A program made the position numbers and the translations under genes. The notes under the pieces were generated by a model. That model was not told the origin of the DNA. It did no database searches and saw only the letters and a list, made by a program, of their open reading frames with translations. A stretch of DNA of 47,727 nucleotides. Origin: Anaerolineae bacterium. Lineage in GTDB: Bacteria > Chloroflexota > Anaerolineae > 4572-78 > NAK82. Positions within the stretch are counted from its first letter, which is position 1. Every line of letters starts with the position of its first letter. The DNA lies in the NCBI GenBank assembly GCA_049969215.1, contig JBMFPH010000003.1, positions 1 through 47,727 on the forward strand. Direction: 5' to 3'. Below are positions 12,788 to 47,727 of the stretch, piece by piece.

Positions 12788-13567
12788 TCATCGGCAGGGG
12801 CTTGGGATCTCTTCGTGCGGCGCGCTGTGTCCCGATGGCTGGTAGCGTTGGGAATATAGTGTTGGCTGGTACTCGGCCCTTCGGCTGGGACATCCCTCTA
12901 ATGGGCAGAGTTGACAACTTTCAAAAGCGCTCTCAGTTGGGAATATGAGACCTGAGACAGACTTGGTGGGTATCATGAGCATGTGTTCGGTCAGCTGCAC
13001 CCCAATGCTCTGCGGGGCAGTGCCCAATATGCGAAATAGCGGTTTTTGCTGCCCCAACGGCCAATCTGCCAAAGATCCCGGGTTCATTTGTGCGATGCGG
13101 CCCGGACGATAGTGAGTCACAAGATGATCACGCATAAATGCGATGGCACTGCGCAGGGCCAGCTCCTTGATTTGATCGGCCCAAAAGCGATGCAGAATGC
13201 GATCCGAGACGGTCTCACTCCAAGATTCCAGCTCTGTGCCACAGGTTGCCACGAAAGAAAAAACGCGATGCGCTTGTTCCAGGTTGACACGCAATACCCG
13301 GCTGCGCAGTTCGATCCCGTTGATAACCACGCTTTGCTCACCACGTGATTCAATGGGTGCCAGAGCGTAGAATGCTTTGGGTCGGCCGATTGCCAGAGCT
13401 TGGGCAACCATTTCCTTAAGGTCTTTCAGCTCCTCTGAGCGCCCCACAAGGTGGAGCTTCTGCGCCAATTGCACTATATCGATCTGCCAGGGAATAGGGT
13501 CTAAGATGTGCTGCTCCACAACATCTCGCCTTTGCAGGGACATCGGATTGACGGCCACTTTCCCCAT
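12788..13567 (-). CDS. Stand-alone B12-dependent methionine synthase activation-domain-like protein
   Basis: FVATCG.ELE, MNPGSLADWPLGQQ, IGVQLT...LMIPTKSVSG and C-terminal CQLCPLEGCPSRR motifs. Start may be 13543. Confidence 0.82.
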   Translation of the reverse strand: MGKVAVNPMSLQRRDVVEQHILDPIPWQIDIVQLAQKLHLVGRSEELKDLKEMVAQALAIGRPKAFYALAPIESRGEQSVVINGIELRSRVLRVNLEQAHRVFSFVATCGTELESWSETVSDRILHRFWADQIKELALRSAIAFMRDHLVTHYRPGRIAQMNPGSLADWPLGQQKPLFRILGTAPQSIGVQLTEHMLMIPTKSVSGLIFPTESAFESCQLCPLEGCPSRRAEYQPTLYSQRYQPSGHSAPHEEIPSPCR

Positions 13568-15186: not shown

Positions 15187-15938
15187 ATGCCCGATACACT
15201 CCAAACGAAAGACATTTTGTTGCGAATGCAAGAGGACTTGCGGCGTGCGCTCGAAAAGCCCCGCACCAGCGTCGCTGGGTGATGGTCATCGACTTGCGCC
15301 GATGCATCGGCTGTCACGCCTGCACGGTGGCGTGTGTCGCGGAGAACAAGCTGCCCCCTGGCGTGGTGTATCGCCCTGTACTAGAGGAGGAATTCGGTAG
15401 CTATCCGAATGCCACCCGGCGTTTCTTGCCGCGTCCATGCATGCAATGCGACAACCCACCGTGCACGCCGGTCTGTCCGGTCCACGCCACCTACCGCGAC
15501 GAAAATGGCGTGGTGGTTGTGGACTATGCGCAATGCATCGGTTGCCGCTATTGCATCACTGCCTGTCCATATGCGGCGCGCACGTTCGACTTCGGCCGCA
15601 CCTATACGGATGGAACAGCAGAAGCAGAGGGATTGATCCTGGGGCGCAGCCGGGCGGATGATTATGAAAGGGTGGCCAATTTTGAGTATGGGCGGCCGTA
15701 CGAGCGCCTCGGAGTGGAAGAATCCCCGATCGGGAATGTGCGCAAGTGTCATTTCTGCTTGCATCGTCTCGCAGCCGGCATGTTGCCGGCATGTACCACC
15801 ACGTGCATCGGACGCGCCACTATGTTCGGAGACGCCAGCGACCCGGATAGCTTAGTGACCGAGATGATCGCGCGTACGAACGTGATACGCCTCAAAGAAG
15901 AACTGGGCACTGAGCCCCGCGTTTATTATCTGGTCTAG
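15187..15938 (+). CDS. 4Fe-4S dicluster subunit (TtrB/SrdB/NrfC-like); apparent frameshift near 15259-15262
   Basis: Four Cys clusters (CIGCHAC..AC, CMQC..PPC...CP, CIGCRYC...CP, KCHFC...C...C). A strong RBS (AAGGAGG) precedes ATG 15187, whose frame stops at 15282; the body of the protein is in the -1 frame (15279-15938). Confidence 0.88.
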
Positions 15939-15950
15939 GGGGAGGGAACG

Positions 15951-17084
15951 ATGGCACTCAAACGCATTGCGTATGCTGCGTGTGTGTTGGCCCTGTTGGC
16001 AGGTGCGTGGGGATTGTATGATCGTCTGGTCTATGGACACCAGCACGCTGCCTATGGCTCTTATGTGGTATGGGGTCTGTGGGTGGCCATGTACTTGTTC
16101 TTCGCCGGGATAGCCGCCGGTGCCTTTATGATCGCCACCCTCGATCTGCTGTTTGGCATCCCGGTGCTGCGCGGCATCGGGCGTCTGGCACTTTGGGTAG
16201 CGCTGGTCAGCTTGGCGGCTGCGTTGCTCTCCATCTGGCTTGACCTGGGGCATATGGATCGCATCTGGAAGGTCTATCTGCAAGGTTCGCCTAGTTCGGT
16301 GATGGCTCAGATGGTATGGGGTTATACCGCGTTTGGCTTTTTGGCCCTTGTCTGCCTGATCCTCGCGCTTACACGGCCGGCCAGCCGATTGTTGCGTGCT
16401 TTGATGATCGTGGGGTTGCCGCTTTCCCTGTTCATCAGCGGCGCGGTGGGTGCCCTGTTGGGGGTACAGGCCAGCCGCATGTTCTGGCATGTGGGCCTGT
16501 TCCCGGTGCAGTTCCCGGTTTTCTCCTTAGCGTCCGGCACCGCGGCGATGCTGGTGGCCATTGGGCTGTTTGGTTCGCGCCAGGATCCGCTGCGCAGTGA
16601 GCAACTGCGTTTGCTTTCTCTGGCTACGGTGGTGTTGACCATTGTGAAGCTCTACTTCTTATGGGCTGACTTCTCACAGAGTATGTACGGCAATGTGCCG
16701 CAGAACGTAAAAGCAGTTGAAGCGGTGCTATATGGGCAATATTGGTGGGCCTTTTGGATTCTGCAGCTTCTGCTCGGCTCGTTGGTTCCCATGGTGGTCT
16801 TGGCGCTGCCCGGTCCGAGCCGCAATGGTCAATGGGCAGGCTGGATGGGGGTGTTGGTGCTGGTCGGCTTCGCTGCCGCGCGTGCCAACATCGTCTTCCC
16901 AGCGCTCACGGTGCCGGAGCTGGAGGCGTTGACCACCGCATTTACCGGACCGCATTTGACGTTCGAGTACTTCCCCAGCCCGATGGAGTGGGCGGTGACA
17001 GCAGGGATTACCGGTATGGCAATATTGGCTTTTCTGATCGGCAACGACGTACTGCCGCTGCGCACAAGGATGGAGGTGGCATAA
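15951..17084 (+). CDS. NrfD/PsrC-family membrane anchor (TtrC/SrdC-like)
   Basis: WGLWVAMYLFFAGIAAG, DLGH..R, SVM, GALLG....R.FW and P...EW motifs; many TM helices. Confidence 0.92.
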   Translation: MALKRIAYAACVLALLAGAWGLYDRLVYGHQHAAYGSYVVWGLWVAMYLFFAGIAAGAFMIATLDLLFGIPVLRGIGRLALWVALVSLAAALLSIWLDLGHMDRIWKVYLQGSPSSVMAQMVWGYTAFGFLALVCLILALTRPASRLLRALMIVGLPLSLFISGAVGALLGVQASRMFWHVGLFPVQFPVFSLASGTAAMLVAIGLFGSRQDPLRSEQLRLLSLATVVLTIVKLYFLWADFSQSMYGNVPQNVKAVEAVLYGQYWWAFWILQLLLGSLVPMVVLALPGPSRNGQWAGWMGVLVLVGFAAARANIVFPALTVPELEALTTAFTGPHLTFEYFPSPMEWAVTAGITGMAILAFLIGNDVLPLRTRMEVA

Positions 17085-17085
17085 T

Positions 17086-20000
17086 ATGGCGACCCAGAAA
17101 AGTGTTCCCCAATCCTACAACGATAAGGAAAGCAGGGTGAGCGCGTTCTCACGGCGTGATTTTATCAAGATGAGCGGACTCATGTGCGGTACGGCTGCCT
17201 TTCTGGGGTGGCGTCCCGACTTCCATCAGCTTGTGGCTTCTCAGGCGGCTGCCACGGAGATCCCGCTGCACTCTCTGGAGAACCAGATTTACACCGTGTG
17301 TCTTCAGTGCAACACGGTATGTGGCATCAAGGTGAAGCTGCTGGACGGCGTGGCAGCCAAGATCGACGGCAATCCCTACAGCCCGTGGACGATGGCACCC
17401 CACCTGGACTATGAAACACCTTTTGCGCAAACCGGAACGGTGGAAGGCGCCATCTGTCCCAAGGGCCAGGCAGGACTGCAAACCGTCTACGACCCATATC
17501 GCATCGTCAAGGTGCTCAAGCGCAAGCCTGGCACCAAGCGTGGCGAGAACCAGTGGATCACGATCGACTTCGACACCGCGTTGGATGAAATCGTCAACGG
17601 CGGGGACCTTTTTGGTGAAGGGCCTGTGCCAGGATTGAAGGAATCCTATGCCCTCAAGGATCCGGCTGTGGCGAAAGAAATGGCTGCTGCTGTCAAGGCG
17701 ATCCTGGCCGAGAAGGATACAGCCAAGAAGCTGGCCTTGGTGGAAGACTTCAAGGTAAAGTTCAAGGACTACCTTGACACTCTGATTGACCCCGATCATC
17801 CCGACTGGGGTCCCAAGAACAATCAGGTGGTCTTCAACTGGGGCCGTCTCAAAGGTGGTCGCAGTGACTTCATCAATCGTTTCATGCGTGATGGCTTCGG
17901 CAGCACCAACACCCACGGACATACGACGGTTTGCCAGGGCTCGCTCTATTTTGCTGGCAAGGCGATGTCGGAGAAGCTGGTCGACGGCAAATGGACGGGA
18001 GGTGACAAATTCTACTGGCAAGGTGACGTGCGCAACAGTGAGTTCGTCATCTTCGTCGGCGCGTCGCCTTTCGAGGGCAACTACGGCCCACCGCTGCGCG
18101 TGCCAGCGCTGACGGTCGGTGCCACCGACAAAGGGCTCAAATATGTGGTGGTCGACCCACGCCTGTCCAAGGTCGCGGCCAAGGCATGGAAGTGGTTGCC
18201 CATCCGCCCCGGCACAGAGGGTGCTATGGCGTTGGCGCTCATCCAATGGGTTCTGGACAACGAACGCTATGACAAAGCCTATCTGGCGGCTGTGAACAAG
18301 GCAGCTGCAGCGGCTGCCGGCAACCCCACCTGGACCGAAGCAGCTTGGCTGGTCAAGCTGGATGAGAACGGCACGCCGACCACCTTCTTGCGCGCGAGCG
18401 AGATCGGGCTGAAGGAGAAGGAGCCACGTCCTCTCTCCACTGACCCGGAGAAGACGTATGAGTTCGATTATTTCGTGACTTTAGTGAACGGAGAGCCAGT
18501 CGCTTTCGACCCATACGCCGATAAACCTGAAGACGCCGTCAGCGGCGACCTGTTCGTCAATGGCATGCAATTGGGCGCGTTCACCGTCAAATCCGTGTTG
18601 CAGATCATCTCTGACGCCGCTCACGAACACACGTTGGAAGAATGGGCGGAGATCTGTGGGTTGCGTGTCACCGACCTGGTGGAGGTGGCGCGCGAGTTCA
18701 CCAGCCACGGCAAGCGCGCCTGTGCCGATATCCATCGCGGCGTGAGCCAGCATACCAATGGCTTCTATAACGTGTTGGCCTGGTACACGCTGAACGCGTT
18801 GATCGGCAATTACGACTTTGCAGGTGGGATGATCAAGCTGAGCACGTATGACGCCGCGGGGAGCAAACCTGGGCAGCCATTCCCCTTGTCCAAGCTCAAT
18901 CCCGGCGCCATGCCCCCCTTCGGCACCTCGATCATCCGCCACGACGCTAAATACCAGGAATCAGTGCTCTATGCACGCTTGCCCGAAGATCAACGCTACC
19001 CGGCCAAGCGCAACTGGTATCCGCTGTCGAGCGATGTCTATCAGGAAGTGATCCCATCCATCGGGGACACCTATCCCTACCCGGTCAAGGCACTCTTCAT
19101 GTATATGGGCTCGCCGGTCTATGCCCTGCCGGCCGGGCATAAGCTGATCGAGATCCTATCCGACCCGAAGAAGCTCCCCTTGTTTATTGCTTTCGACATC
19201 ACTATTGGGGAGACCTCGATGTACGCGGATTACATCTTTCCGGACACAAGCTATCTGGAGCGCTGGGAGTTCAATGGTTCGCACCCATCGGTGCCCTTCA
19301 AGGTGCAGGGTATCCGTCAGCCGGCGATTGCGCCGCTCACCGGTGAGGTGACCGTCTTTGGGCAGACGATGCCACTCAATATGGAGGCGGTGCTGTTGGG
19401 ATTGGCTGAACGCCTCGGTCTCAAGAACTTCGGTCCTGGCGGGCTGGGTGAAGCCGGCGATCTGAGCCACCAGGATGATTTGTATCTGCCCATGGTGGCC
19501 AACGTGGCCTTCGGCGAGAAAGAGGATGGTTCCGACGCTGTGCCGGATGCAGACGCCGAGGAACTACGGCTGTTCGAGCAGGCGCGACGTCACCTGCCCA
19601 AGTCGGTGTTTGACCCCGAACGCTGGAAGCGCATCGTCGGGGAGGCGCTGTGGCCGAAGGTGGTCTATGTGCTTAACCGGGGTGGGCGGTTCCAGAACTT
19701 TGCCAAGGGTTACAAAGGCAACCAAGTAGCCAACCAGTATGGCCGGTTGATCAACATCTACCAAGAGAAGACCTACAGCACCAAAAGCGCCATGACAGGT
19801 GAGCATCTCGTCGGCTACGCCCGCTATTTCCCCGCGCCTGTGGATGTGTTGGGACGCCCTGTCGAAGACGGCGCCGAATATGATCTGCGGCTGATCACCC
19901 ATCGCGAACAGGTGATGACCAAGAGCCGCACCTCCGGCAACTATTGGCTGACTGCGATCATGCCCGAAAACGTCGTGTTGATGAACAGCGCGGATGCCGC

Positions 20001-20355
20001 TGCCCGTGGTCTGAAGACGGGCGACCAGGTGAAGATCATTTGTGCCAGCAATCCGGACGGTGTCTGGGATCTCCACAATGGCGTCCGCGTGCCGATGATC
20101 GGCAGAGTGAAAGTAACCGAGGGCATACGACCAGGTGTGATTTCTTTTGCGCTGGGCTTCGGCCACTTTGCCTATGGCGGGGTGGACTTTCAAATAGATG
20201 GAGTGTTGATCAAAGGGGATTCGCGCCGCACCCGAGGGTTCCATGCGAATGCGGCGATGCGCGTGGATCCTTACTTGGGCAACACACCGTTGGTGGATCC
20301 GGTTGGTGGCAGCGCCGTCTTCTACGACACGATGGTCAAAGTGGTGAAAGTTTGA
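17086..20355 (+). CDS. Tat-exported Mo/W-bisPGD oxidoreductase catalytic subunit (TtrA/SrdA clade)
   Basis: SRRDFIK Tat motif; CxxCxxxC...CPKG Fe-S motif; HTTVCQ putative Cys ligand; [16 protein letters not shown]; C-terminal GFGH.AYG. 1089 aa; B-C-A gene order. Confidence 0.88.
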
Positions 20356-29770: not shown

Positions 29771-30451
29771 ATGCTACGGTCAACCGAGCCCACACCCCAT
29801 ATGCATGAATGGCTGGATCGCCTGGCGCCCGTGGTGCAAGCGGCTCAAGCGACACTACGTTCGCGCAGTGCCGATGCGGTGGCGCGCCTGAGCGGCTGCG
29901 CGCGCGACGCAGAGGGCAACATGCGAATCACCTTTCTGGGCCGAGAATATGTCATCTCGCCGCATGACTTTAGCGTGTACTCCGCTGTCGACCGTCGTGA
30001 GGCATCTTCCTTCATAAGCAGCTTGATCCTCACCTATCTGGCCAACGCGGACGGCACGCTACCTGCTGGAATCTGGATCAGCTTCCGCGAGCTACCAGAT
30101 GGAATGTTCTATGTGCACGCTTTTCAGAGCTATTCCGGTGGGCGTCTGGTGCGCGAGCTGTCAGGTGGCCTGACCGCTTTTCATCGTGCGGCGCAGCGCC
30201 TTGGAGGACAGGCGCTCGCGCTGGGCAGTGCGGCGTACGCCTTCGAGGTACTTCCTCGCGTGCGGCTAGCTATCGTCTACTGGGAAGGGGATGACGAGTG
30301 TCCCTCGCAGGCCCAGGTGCTCTTCGACCGCAACGCCACGCATTATTTGCCCACTGATGGCCTGGCCATCCTCGGCAGCCAGCTGGTGAGTATGCTACTC
30401 AAGACAGCTGCCCGGGAGACATATAGACCTGACATCTCTAGTGGGAATTGA
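29771..30451 (+). CDS. DUF3786-family protein
   Basis: LILTYL..ADG....G.WISFRELPDG.FY..AF, F.VLPRV....VYW.GDDE.P...VLFD..A..YLPT pattern. Confidence 0.82.
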   Translation: MLRSTEPTPHMHEWLDRLAPVVQAAQATLRSRSADAVARLSGCARDAEGNMRITFLGREYVISPHDFSVYSAVDRREASSFISSLILTYLANADGTLPAGIWISFRELPDGMFYVHAFQSYSGGRLVRELSGGLTAFHRAAQRLGGQALALGSAAYAFEVLPRVRLAIVYWEGDDECPSQAQVLFDRNATHYLPTDGLAILGSQLVSMLLKTAARETYRPDISSGN

Positions 30452-37594: not shown

Positions 37595-39217
37595 TCAGTG
37601 GACGTGCCAGATGTGCACCGACTGCCCTGTCTCGTCGTTGAAGGTATGCACGAGTTGTAGGTTGGGGTGTGTCTGCACTCTGTCATAGAATGCCGCCAAT
37701 GGAGCCGGGCGATTCGCGTCCAGTGCCAAATAGCGAGCTCCATAGCGTCGCGCAACCGCCACAACCGTCTCAAGTGGCTCATTGGGCACCACAATGGCGG
37801 GGATGCCGCTGACATACCACCAGCTGGGAGGATCACCTATCATGACCAGCAGATCCGGTTCATGGCGTGCGTTCAGCCAGTCTCTCATTTGAAGATAGCG
37901 TCCGTCGGGCTGCCGCCAGCGCGTGGAAACCACTAACCCGCGGTAGAGAACCAAGCTGCTGACCAGCACAGCCAATGCCACCATGCCTATAGCAAACACA
38001 CGCCGCGCCACATCGAGTTGCCAGTTGGAGCGCAGTGCCACCATGCGGCGGATCACGTCATCTAATCCCACCAACGCGGCAGCATACAGAAAGGGGAGCA
38101 CAGCACTGCCGGAATGGAAGAGGCCACCGCGTGGCCCAGGGAAAGTGAACACGAAAGTCATTATCACGAACAAAACCAGTGCGTAACTGCCCGCCAGCCG
38201 AAACAAGGGATAACGGCGCAATTGCCAGGCACCCCACCCTGCCAGCGGCGCCAGAAAGACCATGCCCCACACAGCCACGACGGTTTGCACGTTCAACCAC
38301 AGCGCTTCCAGCTTGGAGCGCAGAATGTTGTCCCATCCCCAGGCCAGATAGTGTTCCAGCGATGGGGGACGCCCGTAGTGAAACAGGTCGTCGTATTGAG
38401 TGAGCCAGATGGACTGCGCACCGTAGGCCGGCCACGGGGTTCCCATAACCAACATATTGCGTACCATCCATGGCAACATCACGATGATGAAGCTGCCGAG
38501 TATCAATCCAGATGTTCCAAGCATATGCTGGGGTGCACGGCGCAGACGCACAGCTATCCAGAGAATAGATATCCCCAGCAGCAAGACCCCGTCAGCGCGT
38601 GACAGCTGTGCCAGCGCAGCCATGGAACCCGCCAAGACGCACCAGCGTCTGCCATGTCCAACGGTATCCCGCTTAAAAGCTTCCCATGCGCGCCACGTAG
38701 CGATCAGGCACAAGCTGCCGGCCAGGGCAAACGGGGCGAAGTTGTCCGTGTGCGTCCAGTAGGGAACGAAGAACCCGCTAAATATCGCAAGCAACCCGCC
38801 AATCACGGCGTAGAGGCGATACGGCGAGATCAGGCGGGTAACGTAATAGCTGATCAGGGGCAACAGTGCGGACAGAAAGATAAAAGGCACCTGTGCTCCG
38901 CGATAGCTCTGGCCAAAAAGGATCATCCCCAGCCAGGCCAGCAATGTCGGCAGGGGCATCCAGTACAGGTGGCTGGGGTGGGGCAGACCAGGCGGATTGT
39001 CCAGGTAGTTCCACAAAAATGGCTCGTTGAGGCCATTGCCGCGCGCCAGATTGAGCGCGATGTCATAGCTATATGCAGCATCCATATAGCCAGGATGCTG
39101 CATCGGCAGTGTCACCAATCCCCGCACCATCCAGCTTGCCAGGAACAGCCATCCCAGAGCTCTATAGTCTGCCCATTTCAAAACCCGTCTAGAATCATCG
39201 TGCCGTTGTGTCCCCAT
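37595..39217 (-). CDS. GT-C fold glycosyltransferase (GT39/ArnT-PMT-like)
   Basis: YMDAAY...A.NL..G.G, YWMPL, LSRADG and PW..RN motifs; many TM helices. Start uncertain (39217 or TTG 39181). Confidence 0.78.
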   Translation of the reverse strand: MGTQRHDDSRRVLKWADYRALGWLFLASWMVRGLVTLPMQHPGYMDAAYSYDIALNLARGNGLNEPFLWNYLDNPPGLPHPSHLYWMPLPTLLAWLGMILFGQSYRGAQVPFIFLSALLPLISYYVTRLISPYRLYAVIGGLLAIFSGFFVPYWTHTDNFAPFALAGSLCLIATWRAWEAFKRDTVGHGRRWCVLAGSMAALAQLSRADGVLLLGISILWIAVRLRRAPQHMLGTSGLILGSFIIVMLPWMVRNMLVMGTPWPAYGAQSIWLTQYDDLFHYGRPPSLEHYLAWGWDNILRSKLEALWLNVQTVVAVWGMVFLAPLAGWGAWQLRRYPLFRLAGSYALVLFVIMTFVFTFPGPRGGLFHSGSAVLPFLYAAALVGLDDVIRRMVALRSNWQLDVARRVFAIGMVALAVLVSSLVLYRGLVVSTRWRQPDGRYLQMRDWLNARHEPDLLVMIGDPPSWWYVSGIPAIVVPNEPLETVVAVARRYGARYLALDANRPAPLAAFYDRVQTHPNLQLVHTFNDETGQSVHIWHVH

Positions 39218-40362
39218 TTGGCATACCTGTTTATCATCCAGGTAGACTCCGCGGCATGTAGGGACTGAGTCCCACAATGACACGCCAGCTGCCAGCAAAG
39301 TGCCATCTCTTGTATGAAGAGGCTGCCCCAGAGTATGAGGGGAAATAGGTGTGCCAGATACCAGCACCCATCTCCGTACCAGTTGGAAAGCACCGGCAGC
39401 CAGGAGATCGCACTGGTGAGCACGGCGGCTCCTTGTCCCACACGTGCCAGTGCTGGCACTACGAGTAGATAGTGATAGGGATGTAAACAGGGCATGGCAA
39501 ATGTGCCGGCCAGCATCAACATGTCAACGTCTCCACGTGAAAGCCATAACATCACCAGCACGATCGGCAACGACCATGGCCACAGGTGAATGTCATGTGG
39601 CTGCTGCCAGGCAGAAAATTCAGCGATGCTCAATATGTCGAGCGGCCATAATCCCCAAATCGCAATCGAGATTGCCAGCCAGACGATCAAGGCCCAAAAA
39701 TAGCGCTTATTGGCAAGGCAGGCCAGATAGGATACCTGAGGTTTGATAGTAGCCAGAGGTATGAGCCAGGGCAAACCTGTGAGGCCGAAAAGCGCTACCC
39801 CGTCCACCTGTCCCAGAAACAAAACCCAGAATACAGGGAAGGTAAGACATGCACTCACCGCTGCAATGGGTGTGCTTCTCCTCTGATAGAGCGCCAGCGC
39901 CAGACCGGAGAGCGTCAACCCGACCAGAACCGGCCAGCCCAGATAGGCCACCAGAATAATCCAGGGGGGATAATAGGATGTGCCATAGGTGCGTTGGCCT
40001 AAACTGAAGTAATGGCGCCAATCATAGCCCATCAAACCCTCTGGTACAATCCACATCCCGACGATGGAAGAGATGAGGATGCCAGGTAAGGCAAACACCA
40101 GATAGTCACGCAATGTTAGGGATCGGGCTGGTACATTGATCGGTGGAAAAATGAGACACTCCAGGCGCTGCCAGAAGCTGAGCGATGCTGCTTGGCAGTC
40201 TGTTTCTGCGGCAAGCGCTGGCCATAAGGTATGCAGACGGCATAGGAACAGCTTGAGGAATCGCTCCACAGATATCCAGCTTGTTGTTGCAAACCTGAGA
40301 ATGTGCTTCCCAAACGATGCAGGCAGCGCCTGAACTCTTCGCCAACGATTGCTATGATACAC
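39178..40362 (-). CDS. Membrane protein, GT87/DUF2029-like glycosyltransferase
   Basis: DW..Y, YPPW, GQ.D, KPQ and P....Y motifs in a multi-TM protein. Confidence 0.6.
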   Translation of the reverse strand: MYHSNRWRRVQALPASFGKHILRFATTSWISVERFLKLFLCRLHTLWPALAAETDCQAASLSFWQRLECLIFPPINVPARSLTLRDYLVFALPGILISSIVGMWIVPEGLMGYDWRHYFSLGQRTYGTSYYPPWIILVAYLGWPVLVGLTLSGLALALYQRRSTPIAAVSACLTFPVFWVLFLGQVDGVALFGLTGLPWLIPLATIKPQVSYLACLANKRYFWALIVWLAISIAIWGLWPLDILSIAEFSAWQQPHDIHLWPWSLPIVLVMLWLSRGDVDMLMLAGTFAMPCLHPYHYLLVVPALARVGQGAAVLTSAISWLPVLSNWYGDGCWYLAHLFPLILWGSLFIQEMALCWQLACHCGTQSLHAAESTWMINRYAKWGHNGTMILDGF

Positions 40363-40382
40363 CTGGTATATTGTTTGTCACA

Positions 40383-43300
40383 TCAGGCGCACCCATCTTG
40401 TCCCTCCGTATGGGCGACCGGCCCAGTCTCCACAGCGTCCAAGAATCTCTCCACCTGATAACCGCACCGATGCGCCATCTCTTCCCAGCTTTGCAAAATC
40501 ACCTCAACCTGATCTAGCAGAGGGGCTGTCATATCCGGGGACACAGACGGGTCGCAATGAAGGCCGATCTGGGCGGTTAGGTACAACCACCACAGGAGTT
40601 GCTGGAAGGACTCCCGGTGGAACCATAGCACACCTTGATAACGATTCACACCCAAGAACTGCTGGACATCGGTGTCAGCAAACAATGTGCGCAATAAATG
40701 GTCTGCTCTTAGATCCAAGGTGGTCGAAGCGGCCTCGACGGATGAGCGCACTGCCGACGCGGAAGGAAGATCGAACGTCGTCCACCAATCGCCATAGGAG
40801 ACCAGCCATTTGACCCCTAGCACGGCACGCCCGGCTGCCACTTCATCCACTTGGAGCACGCGAGAGAAAGCTTCGCTCAGCCGCCTGCCCAGTCCCCACT
40901 CGTCCATCCAGCTGCGGCTGAGCGTGGCATAGTCGTTCGTATTCACAACTTGAGCTAGCCGGTGCACGATGATCCAGGTATACAGTGTAGCGCGCACCAA
41001 CGGATCATCCGTAGAACAAGCTGCGCGAAAACCTTGCTCCACTGTGCAGGGAGGCTTACAGAGCAGCTGCCAAGCTGTCTCCATCTCGCATCGCAATCCG
41101 GCAAGGATTGCTTGATCGTCCTCTTTGCCGCCGGTGTGTGCTCTGATTGCTTGCAACAACGCGTGCAGGCGTTCCCATAGCATCTCCTGCCACGTCGGAT
41201 CGCCAACGGCTGGCCGGTCCAGACACCACTGGCCTAACAGATACGGCTCCAACAGCGCTTCAAAGCACAATAATACGGGCTGCAACAGCAGCTCGCGCAT
41301 GGCCGCAGTGATGCCCGGCACACCACGCCCGGCCAGATAGGCGGTCAAACGGGCGTAATGTCCTTCTGCATCGTCCTGTACCTGGCGCCAATCGAGAAAA
41401 ACGTGGCGCTTGTAAGCGCCCAGTTCGACGTACAACCCTTGGGAACACAGCTCCTGATTGCTACGAATGTATTCCAGCCCGCTCACATAATCGCGAAAGA
41501 TGGAGAACCAGCCCGGAGCGTGATGCAAGCCCAACCCTTCACCCAGGGTGTCCTGTATCAGACGACGTTCGTCCCCGTGGCCGCCCTTGACGGAGTAGGC
41601 AGCCGAGTTACGAATCCAACCGCGTGCCTCGGCGAAGCGGTTGTTGTAGATGACCAACGCGCGCTCGTCCCCGCAGCGGTTGGAATAGGCAAAGACATCC
41701 TCGTTTACACTGCCGTCCGGACTGAAGAAGTCATACAGACGGAAGTGTTGCACTTCGGAAAAAAGGTGGCGCCGATGCAGCAGGGGGAAGATTTCCCGAC
41801 GATGTCGCTCGATCAACCATTCGTCAGGCTGCTCGTCCCAATAGGCGCGTCGATATTCCATGCCGTACTTCTCGGCAAAACCTTCCACCTGACCATGTCC
41901 AAACATGGGGAGACCAGGCATCGTGACCATCAGGGTGCACACACCGAAGTACTTGTCATCCTTGCCGAACTGATCTACTGCGGTACGTTCATCGGGATTG
42001 TTCATGAAGTTGACGAAGCGTTTGAGGATTTCGGGATCGAACTCCAGCGTGTTCTTGATTACGCTGCGGTATTTAGCGTTTTCTTCGTCGCGCAGCATGT
42101 TCATAAAGGCGCTGTTGTACACACGGTGCATGCCCAAGGTGCGCACGAAATATCCTTCCATCAGCCAGAAAGCTTCGGCCAGCAGCAGCGTATCCGGCAC
42201 CTCTTGAGCGACACGATCCACCACTTCACGCCAGAACTCGTTGGGCATAGCGGCATCGAACTCCGCGCGCGTCATAGCGTGATCGGAACGAGAGGGGATG
42301 TCTCCCCCCGTACCCGGCTCTGGGAACCACAGGCGCTGATAATGCCGTTTGGTGAGCGTCATAGCGGCATCGAAGCGGATGATGGGAAAACGCCGCGCCA
42401 CATCCAAGATGACCTGAATAACCGCTTCGCGCACTTCGGGCTTCAGATAGTTGAGCTGCGCTGTGTCGTTCCATGGCATTCCGGTACCGTCATTGCCGTG
42501 ATAGATGTAACGCACCGCACCGGTCCAGCGATCCAGGCGCTTGAACACTACCGCAGCGTCGCTGCGATCGTAATAATGATCCTCAATGAAAATACCAACT
42601 CGTTCATCCTCAGATAAGTCTGGACCGTTAAAGGTGTAGCTGGCAAAGGGGCTGTAATCCTGGCCGATAAACCAATCAGGATGTTCGATCACCCACTTCG
42701 AGTCAATGGCCATATGGTTGGGCACCATGTCACTGGCCAGACGGATACCATATCGCCAGGCGCGATGGCGCAGATCAAGCAGAGCCTGCTCACCGCCCAA
42801 CTCAGTGGCGATTTGGTATTCATATAATGCATAGGCGGAGGCAGCGGCCTCAGGATTGCCACACAGCTGCTTGATGCGCTGTGAGGCACGGCTGCGCTCC
42901 CATAACCCGATCAGCCATAGTCCAGTGAACCCCCACTCTGCCAATGTAGCCAACTCTTCATCGGGGATCTGATCCAGCCGCTGGATAGGGCGCCCATACT
43001 TGCGCGACAGCTGATCCAGCCATACATGGGTGTTCTTCGCCATCAGCACCAAGCGCGGCATCCACTCACGATCGGGGCTGAAACGTTCCGCCTCCAGCTC
43101 GAGTCCGGTGTACTCATACACGCGCGCCGGGCCCGGGCCCACGAAGACAGGACGCTCTTCCTCACGGATCAAGTCCAAGCTGCCTAACATGCGGAAGATG
43201 TAACGTCCCAATAATGCACCCCAGCGCGTGCGAATATATTCCAGCTGACCGGGCAACGAATAAGGCACAGCCAACGCGGGGCTGCGCAGCATATCCACCA

Positions 43301-43913
43301 GATTCTGGTTGTGCGGACCGAAACGGGGTTGGGTTTCAAAGAACGCATGCAGCTCGGCGATAACTTGCGTATAAGCGGTCTCGCGTTCCAATGGCTCGTC
43401 GTCAAACAGCTCCAAGAAAGGCGCAAAGGCAGGGTTGGCGTTGGCCAGCCAGAGCAACAGCAGCTCTTCGAGGGCAATATTGCGGTGGGGCACGCCATCG
43501 CTCTCACCGCTCAGATATGCATCCAGTCCGATCTCGCGCCGATAAACCGCCAGGGGAGGGAAATCCTCGCCGAAGCGACGCAGCGTCTTCTCCACCGTCT
43601 CCCGTCCAAGGCGTTGTTCCAGCCAGACGAGCGCTTGCGACATCACATTTGGATTCTTGTGCTGACGATACAACTCCACCACATAATGTAGGATCTCATC
43701 GATCAGTCCCATAGCGTTCAGCTGGCCGGCTCGGATTGCCTGTTCGGGGAAACGTGCCAGATCGCGTGTGCGGTTGATGCGCTGAGCAAATAGGCGCGCT
43801 GCGTGAAAATTGGCAAAGATGACGTTACCGCTCAACTGGAAAAGCGACTCGTCGAAACGATAACGCTCTCGAGCCAGACGAGAAACGTGAAATTCTCTTG
43901 TTTCTCTTGTCAC
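40383..43913 (-). CDS. Large GH13 alpha-amylase-family protein
   Basis: DMVPNH, PWNDTAQLNY, catalytic RFDAAM / AEAFW / NNPDE motifs. Start placed at GTG 43913 after GAGG; the ORF is open to 43931. Confidence 0.88.
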   Translation of the reverse strand: MTRETREFHVSRLARERYRFDESLFQLSGNVIFANFHAARLFAQRINRTRDLARFPEQAIRAGQLNAMGLIDEILHYVVELYRQHKNPNVMSQALVWLEQRLGRETVEKTLRRFGEDFPPLAVYRREIGLDAYLSGESDGVPHRNIALEELLLLWLANANPAFAPFLELFDDEPLERETAYTQVIAELHAFFETQPRFGPHNQNLVDMLRSPALAVPYSLPGQLEYIRTRWGALLGRYIFRMLGSLDLIREEERPVFVGPGPARVYEYTGLELEAERFSPDREWMPRLVLMAKNTHVWLDQLSRKYGRPIQRLDQIPDEELATLAEWGFTGLWLIGLWERSRASQRIKQLCGNPEAAASAYALYEYQIATELGGEQALLDLRHRAWRYGIRLASDMVPNHMAIDSKWVIEHPDWFIGQDYSPFASYTFNGPDLSEDERVGIFIEDHYYDRSDAAVVFKRLDRWTGAVRYIYHGNDGTGMPWNDTAQLNYLKPEVREAVIQVILDVARRFPIIRFDAAMTLTKRHYQRLWFPEPGTGGDIPSRSDHAMTRAEFDAAMPNEFWREVVDRVAQEVPDTLLLAEAFWLMEGYFVRTLGMHRVYNSAFMNMLRDEENAKYRSVIKNTLEFDPEILKRFVNFMNNPDERTAVDQFGKDDKYFGVCTLMVTMPGLPMFGHGQVEGFAEKYGMEYRRAYWDEQPDEWLIERHRREIFPLLHRRHLFSEVQHFRLYDFFSPDGSVNEDVFAYSNRCGDERALVIYNNRFAEARGWIRNSAAYSVKGGHGDERRLIQDTLGEGLGLHHAPGWFSIFRDYVSGLEYIRSNQELCSQGLYVELGAYKRHVFLDWRQVQDDAEGHYARLTAYLAGRGVPGITAAMRELLLQPVLLCFEALLEPYLLGQWCLDRPAVGDPTWQEMLWERLHALLQAIRAHTGGKEDDQAILAGLRCEMETAWQLLCKPPCTVEQGFRAACSTDDPLVRATLYTWIIVHRLAQVVNTNDYATLSRSWMDEWGLGRRLSEAFSRVLQVDEVAAGRAVLGVKWLVSYGDWWTTFDLPSASAVRSSVEAASTTLDLRADHLLRTLFADTDVQQFLGVNRYQGVLWFHRESFQQLLWWLYLTAQIGLHCDPSVSPDMTAPLLDQVEVILQSWEEMAHRCGYQVERFLDAVETGPVAHTEGQDGCA

Positions 43914-43928
43914 GGACTCACTACCTCG

Positions 43929-43966
43929 CACCGCCGCTGGCCTTTAATAATAGGCCAGCGGCGGTG
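43929..43966 (-). terminator. 15-bp perfect hairpin between the corrinoid gene and the GH13 gene
   Basis: CACCGCCGCTGGCCT-TTAATAAT-AGGCCAGCGGCGGTG. Confidence 0.6.
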
Positions 43967-44029
43967 TCAACTCCCACAGTTTACGGAGTTCGCTCGCCGA
44001 GATAGCTGCGAAAGGAACTGTTGGGAATG

Positions 44030-44665
44030 CTACGCGACGCCCAGCAATTGTTTTGCCTTGCGCACGGCGCTGCTGGCGTCCGGCGCGTATCCGTCGGCGC
44101 CGATCTCGTCAGCATAATCCTGCGTAATGGGGGCGCCGCCGATCATCACTTTGATCTTGCCGTGCAGCCCAGCCTCTTTCAATGTTTCAATAGTGGTCTT
44201 CATCCCCGGCATCGTGGTGGTCAGGAGCGCCGAGAGGCCAATAATGTCGGCGCGCTGCTCGCGGGCGGTATCGACAAACTTCTGAGCGCTGACATCCACC
44301 CCTAGATCGATCACTTCGAAGCCGGCACCCTCTAGCATCATCTTGACCAGGTTCTTGCCGATATCGTGCAGGTCGCCTTGCACCGTGCCGATGACCACCT
44401 TGCCCAGTGTCTTGACATCTGCCTTCACGAGCTCAGGGCGCAGGATGTTCATCGCGGCCTGCATAGCACGCGCGGAGATGAGCATCTCGGGCACGAACTT
44501 CTCGCCCTCTTCAAAGAGACGGCCCACCTCTGTCATAGCAGGAATGCACGCCTTATGCAGGATATCTTCCGCCTTGATCCCCGCCTTGAGGGCGGCTTCC
44601 GTTTCGGCAGCTGCTTTCTTGGCGTCGCCGTTTAATACTGCGTCGTAAATGCTTTCGAGACTCAT
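44030..44665 (-). CDS. Methyltransferase cognate corrinoid protein (MtbC/MttC/OdmA-like)
   Basis: Cap domain (M..VG..FE.GE.FVPE) plus the B12-binding motif GDLHDIGKN...SALLTTT...IGGAP; 211 aa. Confidence 0.95.
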   Translation of the reverse strand: MSLESIYDAVLNGDAKKAAAETEAALKAGIKAEDILHKACIPAMTEVGRLFEEGEKFVPEMLISARAMQAAMNILRPELVKADVKTLGKVVIGTVQGDLHDIGKNLVKMMLEGAGFEVIDLGVDVSAQKFVDTAREQRADIIGLSALLTTTMPGMKTTIETLKEAGLHGKIKVMIGGAPITQDYADEIGADGYAPDASSAVRKAKQLLGVA

Positions 44666-44784
44666 GGTACCTTTCTCCCTTTCATCTGAGATTTTTGCTT
44701 CTATTTTGTCAACCCACTATCGGGGTAGACATTGCCTTCTTGTTTTCTCCCGGCGGCCGCTCCGCTACTAATGAGGAATTGTGC

Positions 44785-47016
44785 TTATTGATCCTCATCT
44801 GAGCGTGTATATCGCCCGTACTTATGCACCGCCTGAGCCATCACCCACACATTCTGCGCCGGCACCCCCTCCGTAATGGGACCACTGGCGCCCAATACAT
44901 AGCCACCACCGGGTGCCAATTGGGTACACGCCTCTCGGACCGCCTCTTCGATCTTCTCCCAACTGCCATACGCCAAGAGCGAAAGGGGAATGCCCCCTAT
45001 GAAAGCCATCCTACCATGCCATTGGCGCTTCAGGTGCACTAAGTCATTGCATTCCGGTTCCATAGGTAGCACAATATCAAAACCGATGCGCTCCAAGATG
45101 GGCAGCACCTTTTCCATACGTCCGCGCGTGTACAGGCCAACCAGTTTGCCGTGCTCTTTGGCTGGCGCAATCAGCTGCTGCATGCGTGGCACGAACATCT
45201 CCTCGAACATGTCGGGGCGGATCATCAGGCCAACATTGTGCGCGATCTCATCCTTAACCAGCACGAACGCTAGATCGTCCGCAAAACGGTCACATACAGC
45301 GCGCATAACCCGCTGTTGGTGTTCAAGCAGGATGTTCATCAACGTTTCCAGAAAAGGGCGATCGTCATAAAACAGGTAAAGTGCTTCGATCATACCCACG
45401 GCACGCATCGCGCAGTCGAAGAACGAGGAAAAACTGGCCACAATGCCCACCCCAGTGCCCTGTGCTGCGCGCAAATAGCGCTCTAAGACATCCAGTTGAT
45501 CAGCCAACACCGGTGGGGGTTCCAGCTTGTCAAGATCAGTCCAGCTGCGCACCGAGCCGCCCACATAGCATATTGAACCGTCAGAAGAATGGGCAAAGAG
45601 ATTGTTCGGCTGCCAGATGAAATTGCACGCCACCGCGTCCATGCCCAGCCGCACGGCGAACTCCACATGTTCCTCAGGAGTCCCCGGAGGCAAATCGGGT
45701 GTTCGGCTCGGTTGTGCATCGCGCAGTGAGCGCCCCAGTACATACTCGTACACTGCGCGACTTGTCACCCAGAGATTCAAATGGGGCACGCGATCAGCTT
45801 CCTTATGGCGCAGGACGCGTAGTAATCGTTCAACGTTCGACCTATCATAATCGGCGGGTCTGGGAACTTGTCCTGCAAGCTCCCTGTCGGCCAGGTCGAG
45901 ACAAGCGTATCCGGCGTAACGTTCCATCTCACTCAAAGGTTTGATCAACACGCCTTGAAACGTCGGGGTGTGGAGAACGGACAGAGATAAACGAGATTGT
46001 TCATTGGTGTGCTTGAGGTGGTATCCGCATGAGTAGCGCACGATCAAGCGAGTAGGCAACACCACACGACGCGGTGGCAAGAATTGCGTACTGTGCAAGC
46101 GGCTGAAGAGTAGTTGTGCGGCATTACTGCCCATTTCATAACCCGGCTGGGCAATCACGGTCATAAAGGGAAATGAGACTGACAACATTCCAAGGTCATC
46201 GAAGCAAACCAGTGACACATCTTCCGGCACACACAATCCATGACGTTGTAACGCATCCAGGGCACCGAGCGCCAGAGCACTGTTCGCCGCTAAGATGGCA
46301 TCGGGCCGAATCCCTTCATCGAGCAGCTGATTGGTCATATGCGCGCCGGAGACGGCACGGAATTCACCCCGCCGTACCATCTTTGGGTCCACGGGTAAGC
46401 CCACCTCTTGAAGTGCCAAACAGTAGCCGGCCACACAGTCATCGGCAGACGAAAGGGCGACGGGACCCGACAACACAGCGATATGTGTATGGCCCAGCGC
46501 CACCAGGTGATGCACCAGCGCACGCGCTCCGGCTGCCACATCGGTGGTCACGATATCGATATCCCAACCTTGGAAGACCCGTTCCACAGCGACCATCGGG
46601 ATGTTCTGCTCTTGGAGCGGGATCAGATCGCGTGCGCCGGATCCGCAAGGCACAATGATCAACCCCTCGACGCGCTGGCCGAGCATTGTCTGAAGATATT
46701 GCTCCTGGCGAGTTGGGTTCTCGTCGGTATTGCCTAGGAAGACTGCATATCCATGGCTGCGCGCTGCATCCTCCACACCTCGGGCCACTGCTGTCCACAG
46801 AGGGTTGCCGATATCGGGCACTATCAGCCCTAACGTGCCGGTGCGGCGTGAACGCAGGCCACGCGCCACAACGTTGGGGACATAGCCCAGCTCGGCGATG
46901 ACACGTTCCACCGTGTCCCGTGTAGCTGGATTGACACGTGCCGTGCCGTTCAGCACGCGGGATACGGTAACAGGCGAGACACCCGCGCGACGCGCGACAT
47001 CTGCGATGGTGGGCAC
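44785..47016 (-). CDS. LacI/GalR-family repressor fused to a C-terminal UroD/MtaA-like methyltransferase domain
   Basis: TIADVARRAGVS..TVSRVLN HTH, LGYVPN..ARGL and a PBP-type ligand domain ending RYSC. Then DRVP, DEIA....LMI.P..FEE.F.P, FIGGI and GGGYV...EGVP.QN. GGAGG RBS before GTG 47016; one continuous ORF. Confidence 0.88.
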   Translation of the reverse strand: MPTIADVARRAGVSPVTVSRVLNGTARVNPATRDTVERVIAELGYVPNVVARGLRSRRTGTLGLIVPDIGNPLWTAVARGVEDAARSHGYAVFLGNTDENPTRQEQYLQTMLGQRVEGLIIVPCGSGARDLIPLQEQNIPMVAVERVFQGWDIDIVTTDVAAGARALVHHLVALGHTHIAVLSGPVALSSADDCVAGYCLALQEVGLPVDPKMVRRGEFRAVSGAHMTNQLLDEGIRPDAILAANSALALGALDALQRHGLCVPEDVSLVCFDDLGMLSVSFPFMTVIAQPGYEMGSNAAQLLFSRLHSTQFLPPRRVVLPTRLIVRYSCGYHLKHTNEQSRLSLSVLHTPTFQGVLIKPLSEMERYAGYACLDLADRELAGQVPRPADYDRSNVERLLRVLRHKEADRVPHLNLWVTSRAVYEYVLGRSLRDAQPSRTPDLPPGTPEEHVEFAVRLGMDAVACNFIWQPNNLFAHSSDGSICYVGGSVRSWTDLDKLEPPPVLADQLDVLERYLRAAQGTGVGIVASFSSFFDCAMRAVGMIEALYLFYDDRPFLETLMNILLEHQQRVMRAVCDRFADDLAFVLVKDEIAHNVGLMIRPDMFEEMFVPRMQQLIAPAKEHGKLVGLYTRGRMEKVLPILERIGFDIVLPMEPECNDLVHLKRQWHGRMAFIGGIPLSLLAYGSWEKIEEAVREACTQLAPGGGYVLGASGPITEGVPAQNVWVMAQAVHKYGRYTRSDEDQ

Positions 47017-47125
47017 ACTTCCTCCCTCACAACGTACCAGGATAGGGATACTTGGAGCGCTCAAGACCTCTAAGCAGCTCCAAAGAGCTTGTGGGATCCT
47101 ATGTTTTGTACACCTTGCTCAGGAC

Positions 47126-47155
47126 ATGAAAACGATATCATGCTATCGTTTTCAA
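47126..47155. promoter_or_regulatory. Two overlapping LacI-type operators forming an 11-bp inverted repeat
   Basis: TGAAAACGATA-TCATGC-TATCGTTTTCA (47127-47154); each half is a TGAAAACGNTNNCA LacI/CcpA-like site. Confidence 0.75.
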
Positions 47156-47159
47156 ATTC

Positions 47160-47188
47160 ATGATAACAGGATCTTTACCCTATGTCAA
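47160..47188 (-). promoter_or_regulatory. Promoter of the LacI-UroD fusion gene
   Basis: Minus strand TTGACA (47188-47183)-N17-TATCAT (47165-47160) with a TGn extension; operators lie just downstream. Confidence 0.75.
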
Positions 47189-47200
47189 ACCATCAGGATC

Positions 47201-47301
47201 GAGGATGTTGAAAAATTCCTGTGGCTACCCTCTGGCCACTCAGATTTTTGTAGGAAAATAGGCTTATAAAATGGGTAACTCACAAGTTTTTCAACACTCT
47301 C
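47201..47301. mobile_element. 101-bp MITE with 17-bp imperfect TIRs and a 7-bp target duplication
   Basis: GAGGATGTTGAAAAATT (47201-47217) matches the reverse complement of 47285-47301 (GAGAGTGTTGAAAAACT) at 14/17; CAGGATC flanks both sides (47194-47200, 47302-47308). Confidence 0.8.
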
Positions 47302-47320
47302 CAGGATCACCCCCAAAAGC

Positions 47321-47727
47321 CAGGGCTTTTCAGTTCTGTCGTGAGCAGGTATCATTGCGATGATCCGACAAGCACAAAGGAGGGGCAATGGAGAAGAAGA
47401 GTTTGCTGGACTATCTGGGCACGGTGCCGGATCCGCGGCGGCGGCAGGGACGGCGCTATCCCCTGGCCGGAGTGTTAGCAGTGTTGATCCTGGCGGCATT
47501 GCACGGGGAGAGCAGTCTGCGGGGGATGTGGCAATGGGCCCAGGCGCATCAGGATTTGTTGCTCAAACCGTTAGGCTTTGAGGCACGGGGGCGGTTGCCT
47601 GGTTTGACGACGTTGTGGAACTGATTGCGGCGGCTGGACGTTGGGGCGCTGGAGGGTGTGGTGATGGCCTGGGTCGGTGCGTGGGAGGAGGCAGAGGTGG
47701 TGAGCCTGGACGGGAAGTACCTGCGGG
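47321..47727 (+). mobile_element. Left end of an ISAs1-family IS, truncated by the window
   Basis: TIR CAGGGCTTTTCAGTTCT followed by an AAGGAGG RBS and a transposase gene. Confidence 0.9.
47388..47727 (+). pseudogene. ISAs1 transposase with an in-frame TGA at 47622-47624
   Basis: N-terminal VPDPRRRQGRRYPL motif; after the TGA the same frame continues LRRLDVGALE...VVSLDGKYLR, the first DDE motif. Confidence 0.85.

Follow-up and report, generated by a model that had tools for sequence, protein, structure and literature searches.

A LacI-family regulator fused to a UroD-superfamily barrel and encoded upstream of a corrinoid protein in an Anaerolineae bacterium

Corrinoid-dependent O-demethylase and dehalogenase systems such as Odm, Vdm, Mtv, Mto and Cdm consist of four components, namely a methyltransferase I (MTI), a corrinoid protein, a methyltransferase II (MTII) and an activating enzyme. 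Their MTIs have a UroD-superfamily TIM barrel, and the regulation of corrinoid methyltransferase systems is called "largely unexplored" in the Discussion of the paper on the MTI CdmB (PMC13222342). Here we describe a locus in which such a barrel forms the C-terminal part of a transcriptional regulator. It is located on a contig of 47,727 nucleotides (JBMFPH010000003.1 of assembly GCA_049969215.1; the whole contig is referred to as the window) from an Anaerolineae bacterium of the phylum Chloroflexota, and it contains a gene for a LacI-family repressor fused to a UroD-superfamily barrel (UX), followed on the same strand by a gene for a B12-binding corrinoid protein (CORR). As in the described systems, the corrinoid protein is small and has a cap and a Rossmann domain. 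Counterparts of their activator RACo and of their pterin-binding proteins are present here in the genome or in the regulons of relatives. However, the substrates of these systems are methoxylated aromatics, methanol, amines, thiols and halomethanes, not sugars; no known system of this kind lies within a regulon with LacI, sugar ABC transporter and L-fucose isomerase (FucI) genes, and among MTI-like domains none is known to be joined to a DNA-binding repressor. In addition, the operon in the window is without a pterin-binding MTII and without the activating enzyme RACo, both of which are encoded elsewhere in the genome (contigs C249, C274 and C199).

Among individual proteins, the best match to the barrel by both profile and fold is MtaA, a methylcobamide:CoM methyltransferase (structure 4ay7), yet the cut-offs for this protein are missed by far and the zinc positions differ; unlike the hosts of MtaA, the bacterium studied here belongs to Chloroflexota and gives no sign of coenzyme M use. 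The N-terminal part shares with the LacI/GalR repressors (CcpA, CytR, RbsR, PurR, LacI) the helix-turn-helix (HTH), the type I periplasmic-binding-protein (PBP) core, and a 14-bp operator with a central CG over the region of the transcription start. Unlike these repressors, the fusion carries a C-terminal extension of ~400 residues, composed of a tether and the enzyme-family barrel, and all equivalog cut-offs are missed. Regulators joined to an enzyme, or to an enzyme-derived domain, of a pathway are known from PutA, BirA, NadR and the MocR-type fusions of GntR with an aminotransferase. These also combine a DNA-binding module with a domain of the controlled pathway, but the domain pair is different here and the proposed signal would be a protein-bound cofactor carrier instead of a small molecule. 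In the CarH and AerR systems, a B12-binding protein is likewise tied to the control of transcription; in those systems, sensing is done by the B12 domain itself, which is either fused or bound directly to the DNA-binding protein, whereas our locus encodes a B12 protein of the methyl-carrier type whose contact with the regulator would be made through a methyltransferase-like barrel.

Each part of the system (LacI repressor, UroD-superfamily barrel, corrinoid protein of the methyl-carrier type) is of a known kind, while their combination is undescribed in the literature searched. The first-pass annotation of this DNA knew of no characterized protein with this architecture, and our literature search agrees with it in having returned no paper on a LacI-UX fusion; the supplementary synteny data of PMC13222342, which might show LacI-fused members, were outside that search. 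It also returned no paper on corrinoid-dependent (anaerobic, B12-dependent) O-demethylation of sugars. The mlp gene clusters of Kountz and Balskus were considered as the same system and rejected, since the passages retrieved from that paper (PMC10418091) make no mention of LacI, sugars or Chloroflexi. We did not assign UX as an MTII, because MtoA is described in the retrieved part of PMC8630106 as an MtrH homolog and is not of the UroD type.

The first-pass annotation proposed one continuous open reading frame (ORF) of ~743 aa joining a complete LacI protein to a UroD/MtaA-like barrel, and this was confirmed by the ORF itself, its ribosome site and the Pfam matches (Table 1). In the mechanical ORF listing, the fusion appears as one minus-strand frame, 44785..47064, of 759 aa from a TTG codon, and all residue numbers of the fusion protein used here refer to this frame. 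We prefer the GTG codon at 47016 as the start, because a GGAGG-type ribosome site (47027-47018) immediately precedes it and because the resulting 743 aa match the length of most homologs. The effector core matches Peripla_BP_1 (PF00532) with 110 bits (E 2e-31) and Peripla_BP_3 (PF13377) with 111 bits (E 6e-32), and in NCBIfam the N-terminal half scores 200-215 bits to the CytR, CcpA, RbsR and PurR models, each under its cut-off. The URO-D match of the C-terminal part covers residues 496-749 (E 2e-20; 73 bits vs a cut-off of 23.9). Across 21 fusions, the mean column conservation is 0.77 for the LacI part, 0.75 for the UX domain and 0.45 for the linker. The model of the full-length protein (predicted template modeling score, pTM, 0.48) contains two confident modules in no defined mutual arrangement, with a predicted local distance difference test (pLDDT) value below 50 for residues 340-409.

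Table 1. Coordinates of the fusion operon and of the features next to it in the window
Feature	Position	Strand	Details
Promoter-like site	47160..47188	-	TTGACA, 17 nt, TATCAT plus TG extension; 11/12 positions match
Two abutting 14-bp LacI-type operators	47127..47154		28-bp palindrome, 93% complementary, 6 nt after the -10 hexamer
LacI-UX fusion gene	44785..47016	-	743 aa from GTG 47016; mechanical ORF call begins at TTG 47064
LacI-type HTH	46873..47010	-	Residues 19-64; PF00356, E 1e-18, 67 bits vs cut-off 27
LacI/PBP effector core	46027..46839	-	Residues 76-346; Pfam PF00532 and PF13377
Linker	45838..46026	-	Residues 347-409; poorly conserved
UX domain, UroD-superfamily TIM barrel	44806..45837	-	Residues 410-753; Pfam PF01208
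Corrinoid (B12-binding) protein	44030..44665	-	211 aa; 119 nt downstream of the fusion; own GGGAG-type ribosome site
Hairpin	43929..43966		Perfect 15-bp stem; between the corrinoid gene and the 1182-aa gene, overlapping the GTG of the latter
Alpha-amylase-family protein	40383..43931	-	1182 aa; only the central alpha-amylase catalytic domain in Pfam

The fusion is real, and it is neither an assembly artifact nor a singleton. When the last 380 residues were searched against proteins of similar total length, 296 of the 8000 candidates scored were matches, and HTH, PBP core and URO-D occur together at ~740 aa in 108 of the 120 relatives listed from these matches. The named relatives belong to Anaerolineae, Caldilineales and other Chloroflexota, and they have no database name other than "LacI family transcriptional regulator" or "substrate-binding domain-containing protein". 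A survey in which each GTDB species was represented by one genome yielded 165 stretches that code for a relative; 79 loci were fetched (labels beginning with L), of which 60 contain both parts in one ORF. The junction at 45850-46000, to which the first-pass annotation had drawn attention, is bridged by contigs of four public runs from four studies, which represent a relative ~96% identical. One 16-kb contig from these runs covers 43900-47201, and the only indels listed for it are intergenic. No RNA run was present among the public runs listed with matching DNA, and the comparison rests on DNA contigs. In one of the fetched loci (L046, 8004-10150), the fusion gene is apparently broken into three frames, which may reflect a pseudogene or a sequencing error.

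The promoter-like site upstream of the fusion gene, read from 47188 to 47160, is the sole such site on the minus strand within 43800-47400. The LacI-type operators reported earlier for this position were found as two abutting sites. An operator motif of roughly TGAAAnCGATAnCA (14 bp, central CG) precedes the fusion by 30-170 nt in 51 of the 60 fused loci, and at least ten fused loci have an abutting pair as in the window; this conservation supports the view that the fusion gene is autoregulated through LacI operators. Second operators were found in several relatives, where they precede a class II aldolase gene of the fuculose-phosphate aldolase family (L009, L011), CUT2 transporter genes (L008, L013, L036, L044, L066), a UroD gene accompanied by a CUT2 transporter (L017) or a gene for a pterin-binding methyltransferase (Pterin_bind; L012). 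Judged by these further copies, the fusion family jointly controls genes for fucose catabolism, for the uptake of sugars and for corrinoid methyl transfer. We also scanned the genome of the window with a matrix made from 66 upstream sites of 57 fused loci, and the two sites in the window rank top among the 61 that score above the threshold of 11.

The gene neighborhoods of the relatives connect the fusion to corrinoid proteins, UroD-family genes and sugar metabolism. The CORR gene directly follows the fusion only in the close relatives L001-L007 (at least 60% identity) and in L025, i.e., in eight loci. In 24 fused loci, the fusion heads an operon composed of two further UroD-family genes, U2 and U3, often a creatininase/IolN-like hydrolase gene, and the solute-binding protein (SBP) and permease genes of a CUT1 sugar ABC transporter; U2 and U3 both have an H-x-C ... 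H triad. Longer flanks revealed that this operon continues with a CORR gene, whose product is 63-68% identical to that of the window, and a standalone UX gene (54-59% identical to the fused one), after which FucI is the next gene in all three extended loci. Standalone UX adjoins CORR in L009, L014, L017, L020 and L043. FucI was found in ten fused loci, and it lies directly 3' of the fusion in L059, L036, L044, L035 and L050, as well as in L055, which was not scored as fused. The fusion-headed operon of L059, from Anaerolinea thermolimosa IMO-1, contains FucI together with a CUT2 transporter, an FGGY kinase and a GH42 gene, and in L036 FucI is followed by genes for a homocysteine S-methyltransferase domain (S-methyl_trans), a RACo activator and CORR. 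Altogether, MTII- or activator-type genes (pterin-binding, RACo) occur in the regulons of L012, L031 and L036. A plain LacI protein, ~53% identical and without a barrel, heads the U2-U3-transporter operon in L065, L071, L074 and L078. In seven loci (L017, 13162-15939; L020, L028, L029, L031, L034 and L053), the CUT1 solute-binding protein is of double length (~925 aa) with two SBP_bac_1-like halves.

Modeled alone, the barrel reaches a pLDDT of 91, and its best fold match is MtaA of Methanosarcina mazei, with template modeling (TM) scores of 0.67/0.76, followed by uroporphyrinogen decarboxylases. A profile built from the barrel and 53 standalone relatives matches MtaA at E 2e-25, and also the chloromethane MTI CdmB. 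The curated MtaA/CmuA models are not reached (TIGR01463, 33.9 vs 235.4; PRK06252, 42 vs 244; MtaA_Meth, 35.8 vs 400). MtaA has an H-x-C motif and a later C, which we take to be its zinc ligands. In our alignment, the wider family has H-x-D and H at these positions, the UX subfamily mostly H-x-D ... T and its closest standalone relatives H-T-D ... T, whereas the window protein has Y-x-R ... G; judged by this alignment, the barrel is without the zinc ligands of MtaA. Nearly all UroD paralogs listed from the genome of the window have H-x-C/D ... H or C, with the barrel of the fusion among very few exceptions. The H and the D are kept in 62 of the 127 fused proteins and in all close standalone UX proteins, and Y/R/G replaces the triad in ten fused proteins, which form the clade of the window. 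The third His of the triad is found in none of the 127 fused rows, as opposed to 45 of the 97 standalone rows. A pseudoenzyme state specific to fused copies was considered and rejected, since the closest standalone UX proteins (P0121, L022, L023, L032) are also without the third His. Its loss marks the subfamily and not the fusion. What is left of that reading is the loss of H and D in the ten rows that make up the window clade; this suggests catalytic death of the barrel in that clade.

A FastTree tree of 129 barrel domains, whose supports are local Shimodaira-Hasegawa-like values only, groups 47 rows in one clade with good support; 30 of these are fused, 13 are standalone and 4 differ in length from both. 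The standalone proteins fall within groups of fused ones, and no fewer than 6 changes of the fused label are required, though some rows labeled standalone may be gene fragments. A standalone UX paralog is present alongside the fused copy in eight loci. The fused C-terminal domain of the cultured A. thermolimosa IMO-1 (L059, 7962-10022) is only 28% identical, and Pfam reports no URO-D in it.

The claim that the fusion gene is directly upstream of a B12-binding gene holds as well. Pfam identifies in the corrinoid protein the B12-binding_2 cap (PF02607; E 2e-23, 82.5 bits) and the Rossmann domain (PF02310; E 2e-31, 108.9 bits). The NCBIfam models are all missed, TIGR02370 narrowly (209 vs 215.3), MtgC_2 (224 vs 370) and MtbC (212 vs 350) by more. 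Residues D98, H100, G103, S145, L147, G176 and G177 are invariant in 15 orthologs, and D-x-H-x-x-G, S-x-L and G-G are presumably the cobalamin-binding motifs. Modeling of the complex between the barrel and this protein, proposed in the first-pass annotation, was performed with barrel residues 376-759 in three runs and with three controls. The interface score ipSAE was 0.77, vs 0.00 for the best control. The mark used for this score is reached by 58 of 80 solved complexes and by 2 of 110 mismatched pairs; as alignments of our own were used, this calibration applies only roughly. The three runs have at least 93% of their contacts in common, and the pLDDT of the partner is at least 86. On the corrinoid side, the modeled contacts are formed by the cobalamin face, i.e., by loop 96-105 with the His ligand, residues 148-153 and 177-184, and cap helix 51-66. 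On the barrel side, they are formed by the mouth, including residue 647, the position of the Asp of the subfamily and of the Cys of MtaA. The mouth of the barrel is therefore predicted by the model to dock on the cobalamin face of the corrinoid protein. It should be noted that the high score may partly reflect likeness to solved methyltransferase-corrinoid complexes.

The genome of the window (3.4 Mb, 368 contigs, labeled C...) has 33 URO-D matches vs three to four small corrinoid proteins, one of which is encoded next to a RACo activator (C199). Several of the UroD genes adjoin sugar ABC transporter genes (e.g., on C110, C24, C104, C126 and C2), a pattern that resembles an extensive expansion of methyltransferase-like barrels linked to the uptake of sugars. 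The fused copy is the only barrel of the UX clade in this genome. U2, another UroD gene, U3, a transporter and FucI, which passes the NCBIfam equivalog cut-off (1104.6 vs 775), are located on C110, whose start falls inside U2. Contig C64 begins inside a gene for a plain LacI paralog (54% identical) that has its own operator. C64 and C110 may abut, which would place the transporter, UroD and FucI genes behind the plain LacI paralog. Parts resembling methionine synthase are encoded as separate genes (C14, C249, C274), namely S-methyl_trans alone and two Pterin_bind proteins, to which a weak activation-domain match in the window can be added; no full-length MetH was seen in this genome. On C24 (L108, 810-8602), a 568-aa regulator composed of a DeoR HTH, a DeoR sensor domain and a sugar-binding Peripla_BP_4 domain is encoded next to UroD, corrinoid protein, UroD and CUT2 sugar ABC genes.

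O-methyl-fucose, O-methyl-rhamnose and other methylated sugars are common constituents of the polysaccharides of plants, algae and cyanobacteria, and to our knowledge the only bacterial demethylation of sugars described to date is oxidative and involves a P450 acting on 6-O-methyl-galactose. The family context fits B12-dependent demethylation of an O-methylated sugar and would narrow the substrate to fucose or a methylated 6-deoxyhexose. The first-pass annotation had proposed such a B12-linked sugar system. This stands as far as the relatives are concerned, since they tie the fusion to CORR, UroD, sugar ABC and FucI genes; it does not extend to the operon of the window, given that the transporter, UroD and FucI genes of this genome are on another contig. 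The reading that we favor, though only tentatively, is that of a self-repressed two-gene operon in which the barrel serves as a tethered corrinoid-docking or sensor module and the LacI core reads a fucose-like sugar. The repressor would bind the two abutting operators just after its own promoter and control itself and the corrinoid methyl carrier. In the family as a whole, the regulon would include FucI, a fuculose-aldolase-like gene, a kinase and sugar ABC uptake genes, together with a corrinoid-dependent methyltransferase set consisting of MTI-like UroD-superfamily paralogs and CORR, to which some genomes add RACo and a methyltransferase of the pterin-binding or homocysteine type.

From this gene content, we infer demethylation of a methylated fucose-like sugar followed by the FucI route as the most economical pathway. 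UroD paralogs would move the methyl group from an imported fucose-related substrate to the corrinoid protein, from which it would pass to tetrahydrofolate or homocysteine, while the freed sugar would enter the FucI route; these steps follow the logic of MTI, corrinoid protein, MTII and activator set out in the retrieved parts of PMC13222342 and PMC8630106. The fused barrel would be a recruited copy, on a flexible tether, of the enzyme that relatives encode beside CORR. In the clade of the window, the barrel has probably lost catalysis, and because the His and Asp that most of the subfamily retains have been lost in this lineage, it may act mainly as a sensor or docking module that reports the presence or state of the corrinoid carrier. 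It might also cross-link LacI dimers on the tandem operators, with the LacI core reading the sugar.

Several observations weigh against this reading. In the scan of the genome of the window, no other convincing operator was found, most of the 11 inspected sites being inside long ORFs. The exceptions, C105:2274 and C64:710, each adjoin another LacI-like gene. A wider regulon in this genome is therefore not claimable, and the regulator of the window would visibly control just itself and the corrinoid protein. CORR, U2, U3 and FucI were all unseen in 18 of the 60 fused loci, many of which have short flanks, and 8 of the fused loci with at least 7 kb downstream show none of these genes. The expectation that homologs have corrinoid neighbors held for the eight loci in which CORR adjoins the fusion and the five in which it adjoins standalone UX, but FucI-type loci have no corrinoid gene nearby. 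Moreover, UX has diverged in the FucI-type loci (mean identity 42%, vs 57% for LacI); given these two observations, the barrel may do something that needs no corrinoid protein. The 32 residues predicted to be in contact are less conserved than the domain average (0.65 vs 0.76), but as this comparison takes in buried residues, it counts as a weak negative at most. A rigid allosteric path from the barrel to the HTH is not apparent, given the 65-residue linker and the pTM of the full-length model. As to catalysis, close standalone UX proteins are likewise without the third His, and CdmB is active although it is zinc-free according to the retrieved passages of PMC13222342, so that missing zinc ligands do not prove inactivity.

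This last point also favors the main rival explanation, in which the fusion is a bifunctional trigger enzyme whose barrel is a fully active methyltransferase, either a methyl-sugar:corrinoid MTI or a methyl-corrinoid:acceptor enzyme, fused to its own repressor, with regulation through the LacI sugar pocket or through turnover of substrate by the barrel. UX is as conserved as the LacI part, its clade includes standalone proteins adjoining CORR, and the docking predicted by the model has the geometry of a catalytic complex; furthermore, the fused copy would have to supply the function in the genome of the window, as no other member of the UX clade is present there. We nevertheless consider this explanation somewhat unlikely, since the clade of the window replaced the His and Asp, since a standalone paralog in the same operon makes the fused copy redundant as an enzyme in eight loci, and since a repressor is normally far scarcer than a catabolic enzyme. 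Both other biological explanations are less likely. UroD dimerizes, and the barrel could be an oligomerization module that connects LacI dimers on the tandem operators, or a pocket for a small-molecule effector such as a methylated sugar, without contact to CORR, whose adjacency would then only reflect shared regulation. The homodimeric state of UroD-superfamily proteins, including CdmB (PMC13222342, retrieved passages), the fit of the tandem 14+14 operators to a dimer of dimers, the flexible tether in the full-length model and the FucI-type loci are in line with this possibility, but the high score of the modeled complex relative to its controls and the adjacency of CORR to both fused and standalone UX make it quite unlikely. 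A switch of the CarH/AerR type, with the B12 protein acting through the barrel as a photoreceptor or as a sensor of B12 availability, is highly improbable. The layout of B12-binding_2 and B12-binding is common to CarH, there is a weak match to the CarH model (E 4.5e-11), and the runs with near-identical DNA are labeled as hot-spring and sediment metagenomes. That match, however, has 42.5 bits vs a cut-off of 400, as compared with 209-224 bits for the methyltransferase corrinoid models, and the orthologs occur with UroD methyltransferase-like genes, RACo, S-methyl_trans and Pterin_bind. Finally, the assembly is fragmented (368 contigs) and the gene is near a contig end, so that two genes might have been wrongly joined by assembly or annotation; this is refuted by hundreds of independent assemblies and by the contigs of the four runs, in which the same frame is uninterrupted, and its probability is practically nil.

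Other features of the window concern the borders of the operon or are unrelated to it. The hairpin downstream of the corrinoid gene is a possible operon end; no T-run follows it and it was not predicted as a terminator. The changes seen in the contigs of relatives are mostly in its loop (43944-43951), plus one stem base. The 1182-aa alpha-amylase-family gene also follows the corrinoid gene in L001-L004, L006 and L007, and the 394-aa and 590-aa ORFs after it (37595-43931, including the 1182-aa gene) have no Pfam or NCBIfam match. A fragment of DDE_Tnp_1_assoc, which is transposase-associated, lies just upstream of the promoter (47388-47624), and because the contig also ends there, the original upstream neighborhood may be lost. 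An activation domain and a DUF3786 gene had been cited in the first-pass annotation as support for the proposed system. Both lie outside the operon, the former being a marginal match (12788-13567; 29.7 bits over 42 residues) at a distance of 31 kb and the latter (29771-30451) at 14 kb, and they add little. Unrelated to the fusion is a cluster of three genes at 15279-20355, whose products are a 4Fe-4S dicluster protein, a membrane protein resembling NrfD and a molybdopterin oxidoreductase of 1089 aa.

In its widest form, our interpretation is that Chloroflexota possess an undescribed corrinoid-dependent O-demethylation of methylated fucose-type sugars, together with the first transcription factor that reads the state of a corrinoid carrier (apo/holo, Co(I)/CH3-Co(III)) through a degenerate methyltransferase domain; we regard this combined claim as unlikely. 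If true, sugar sensing would be coupled with the status of the methyl carrier at one promoter. The regulon provides a concrete gene set for B12-dependent demethylation of sugars in an abundant and little-studied phylum, and one cultured bacterium, A. thermolimosa IMO-1, carries a (diverged) fusion. The fusion would add a new sensor module to the LacI family, and it could reveal how cells adjust the provision of an expensive corrinoid carrier to the substrate.

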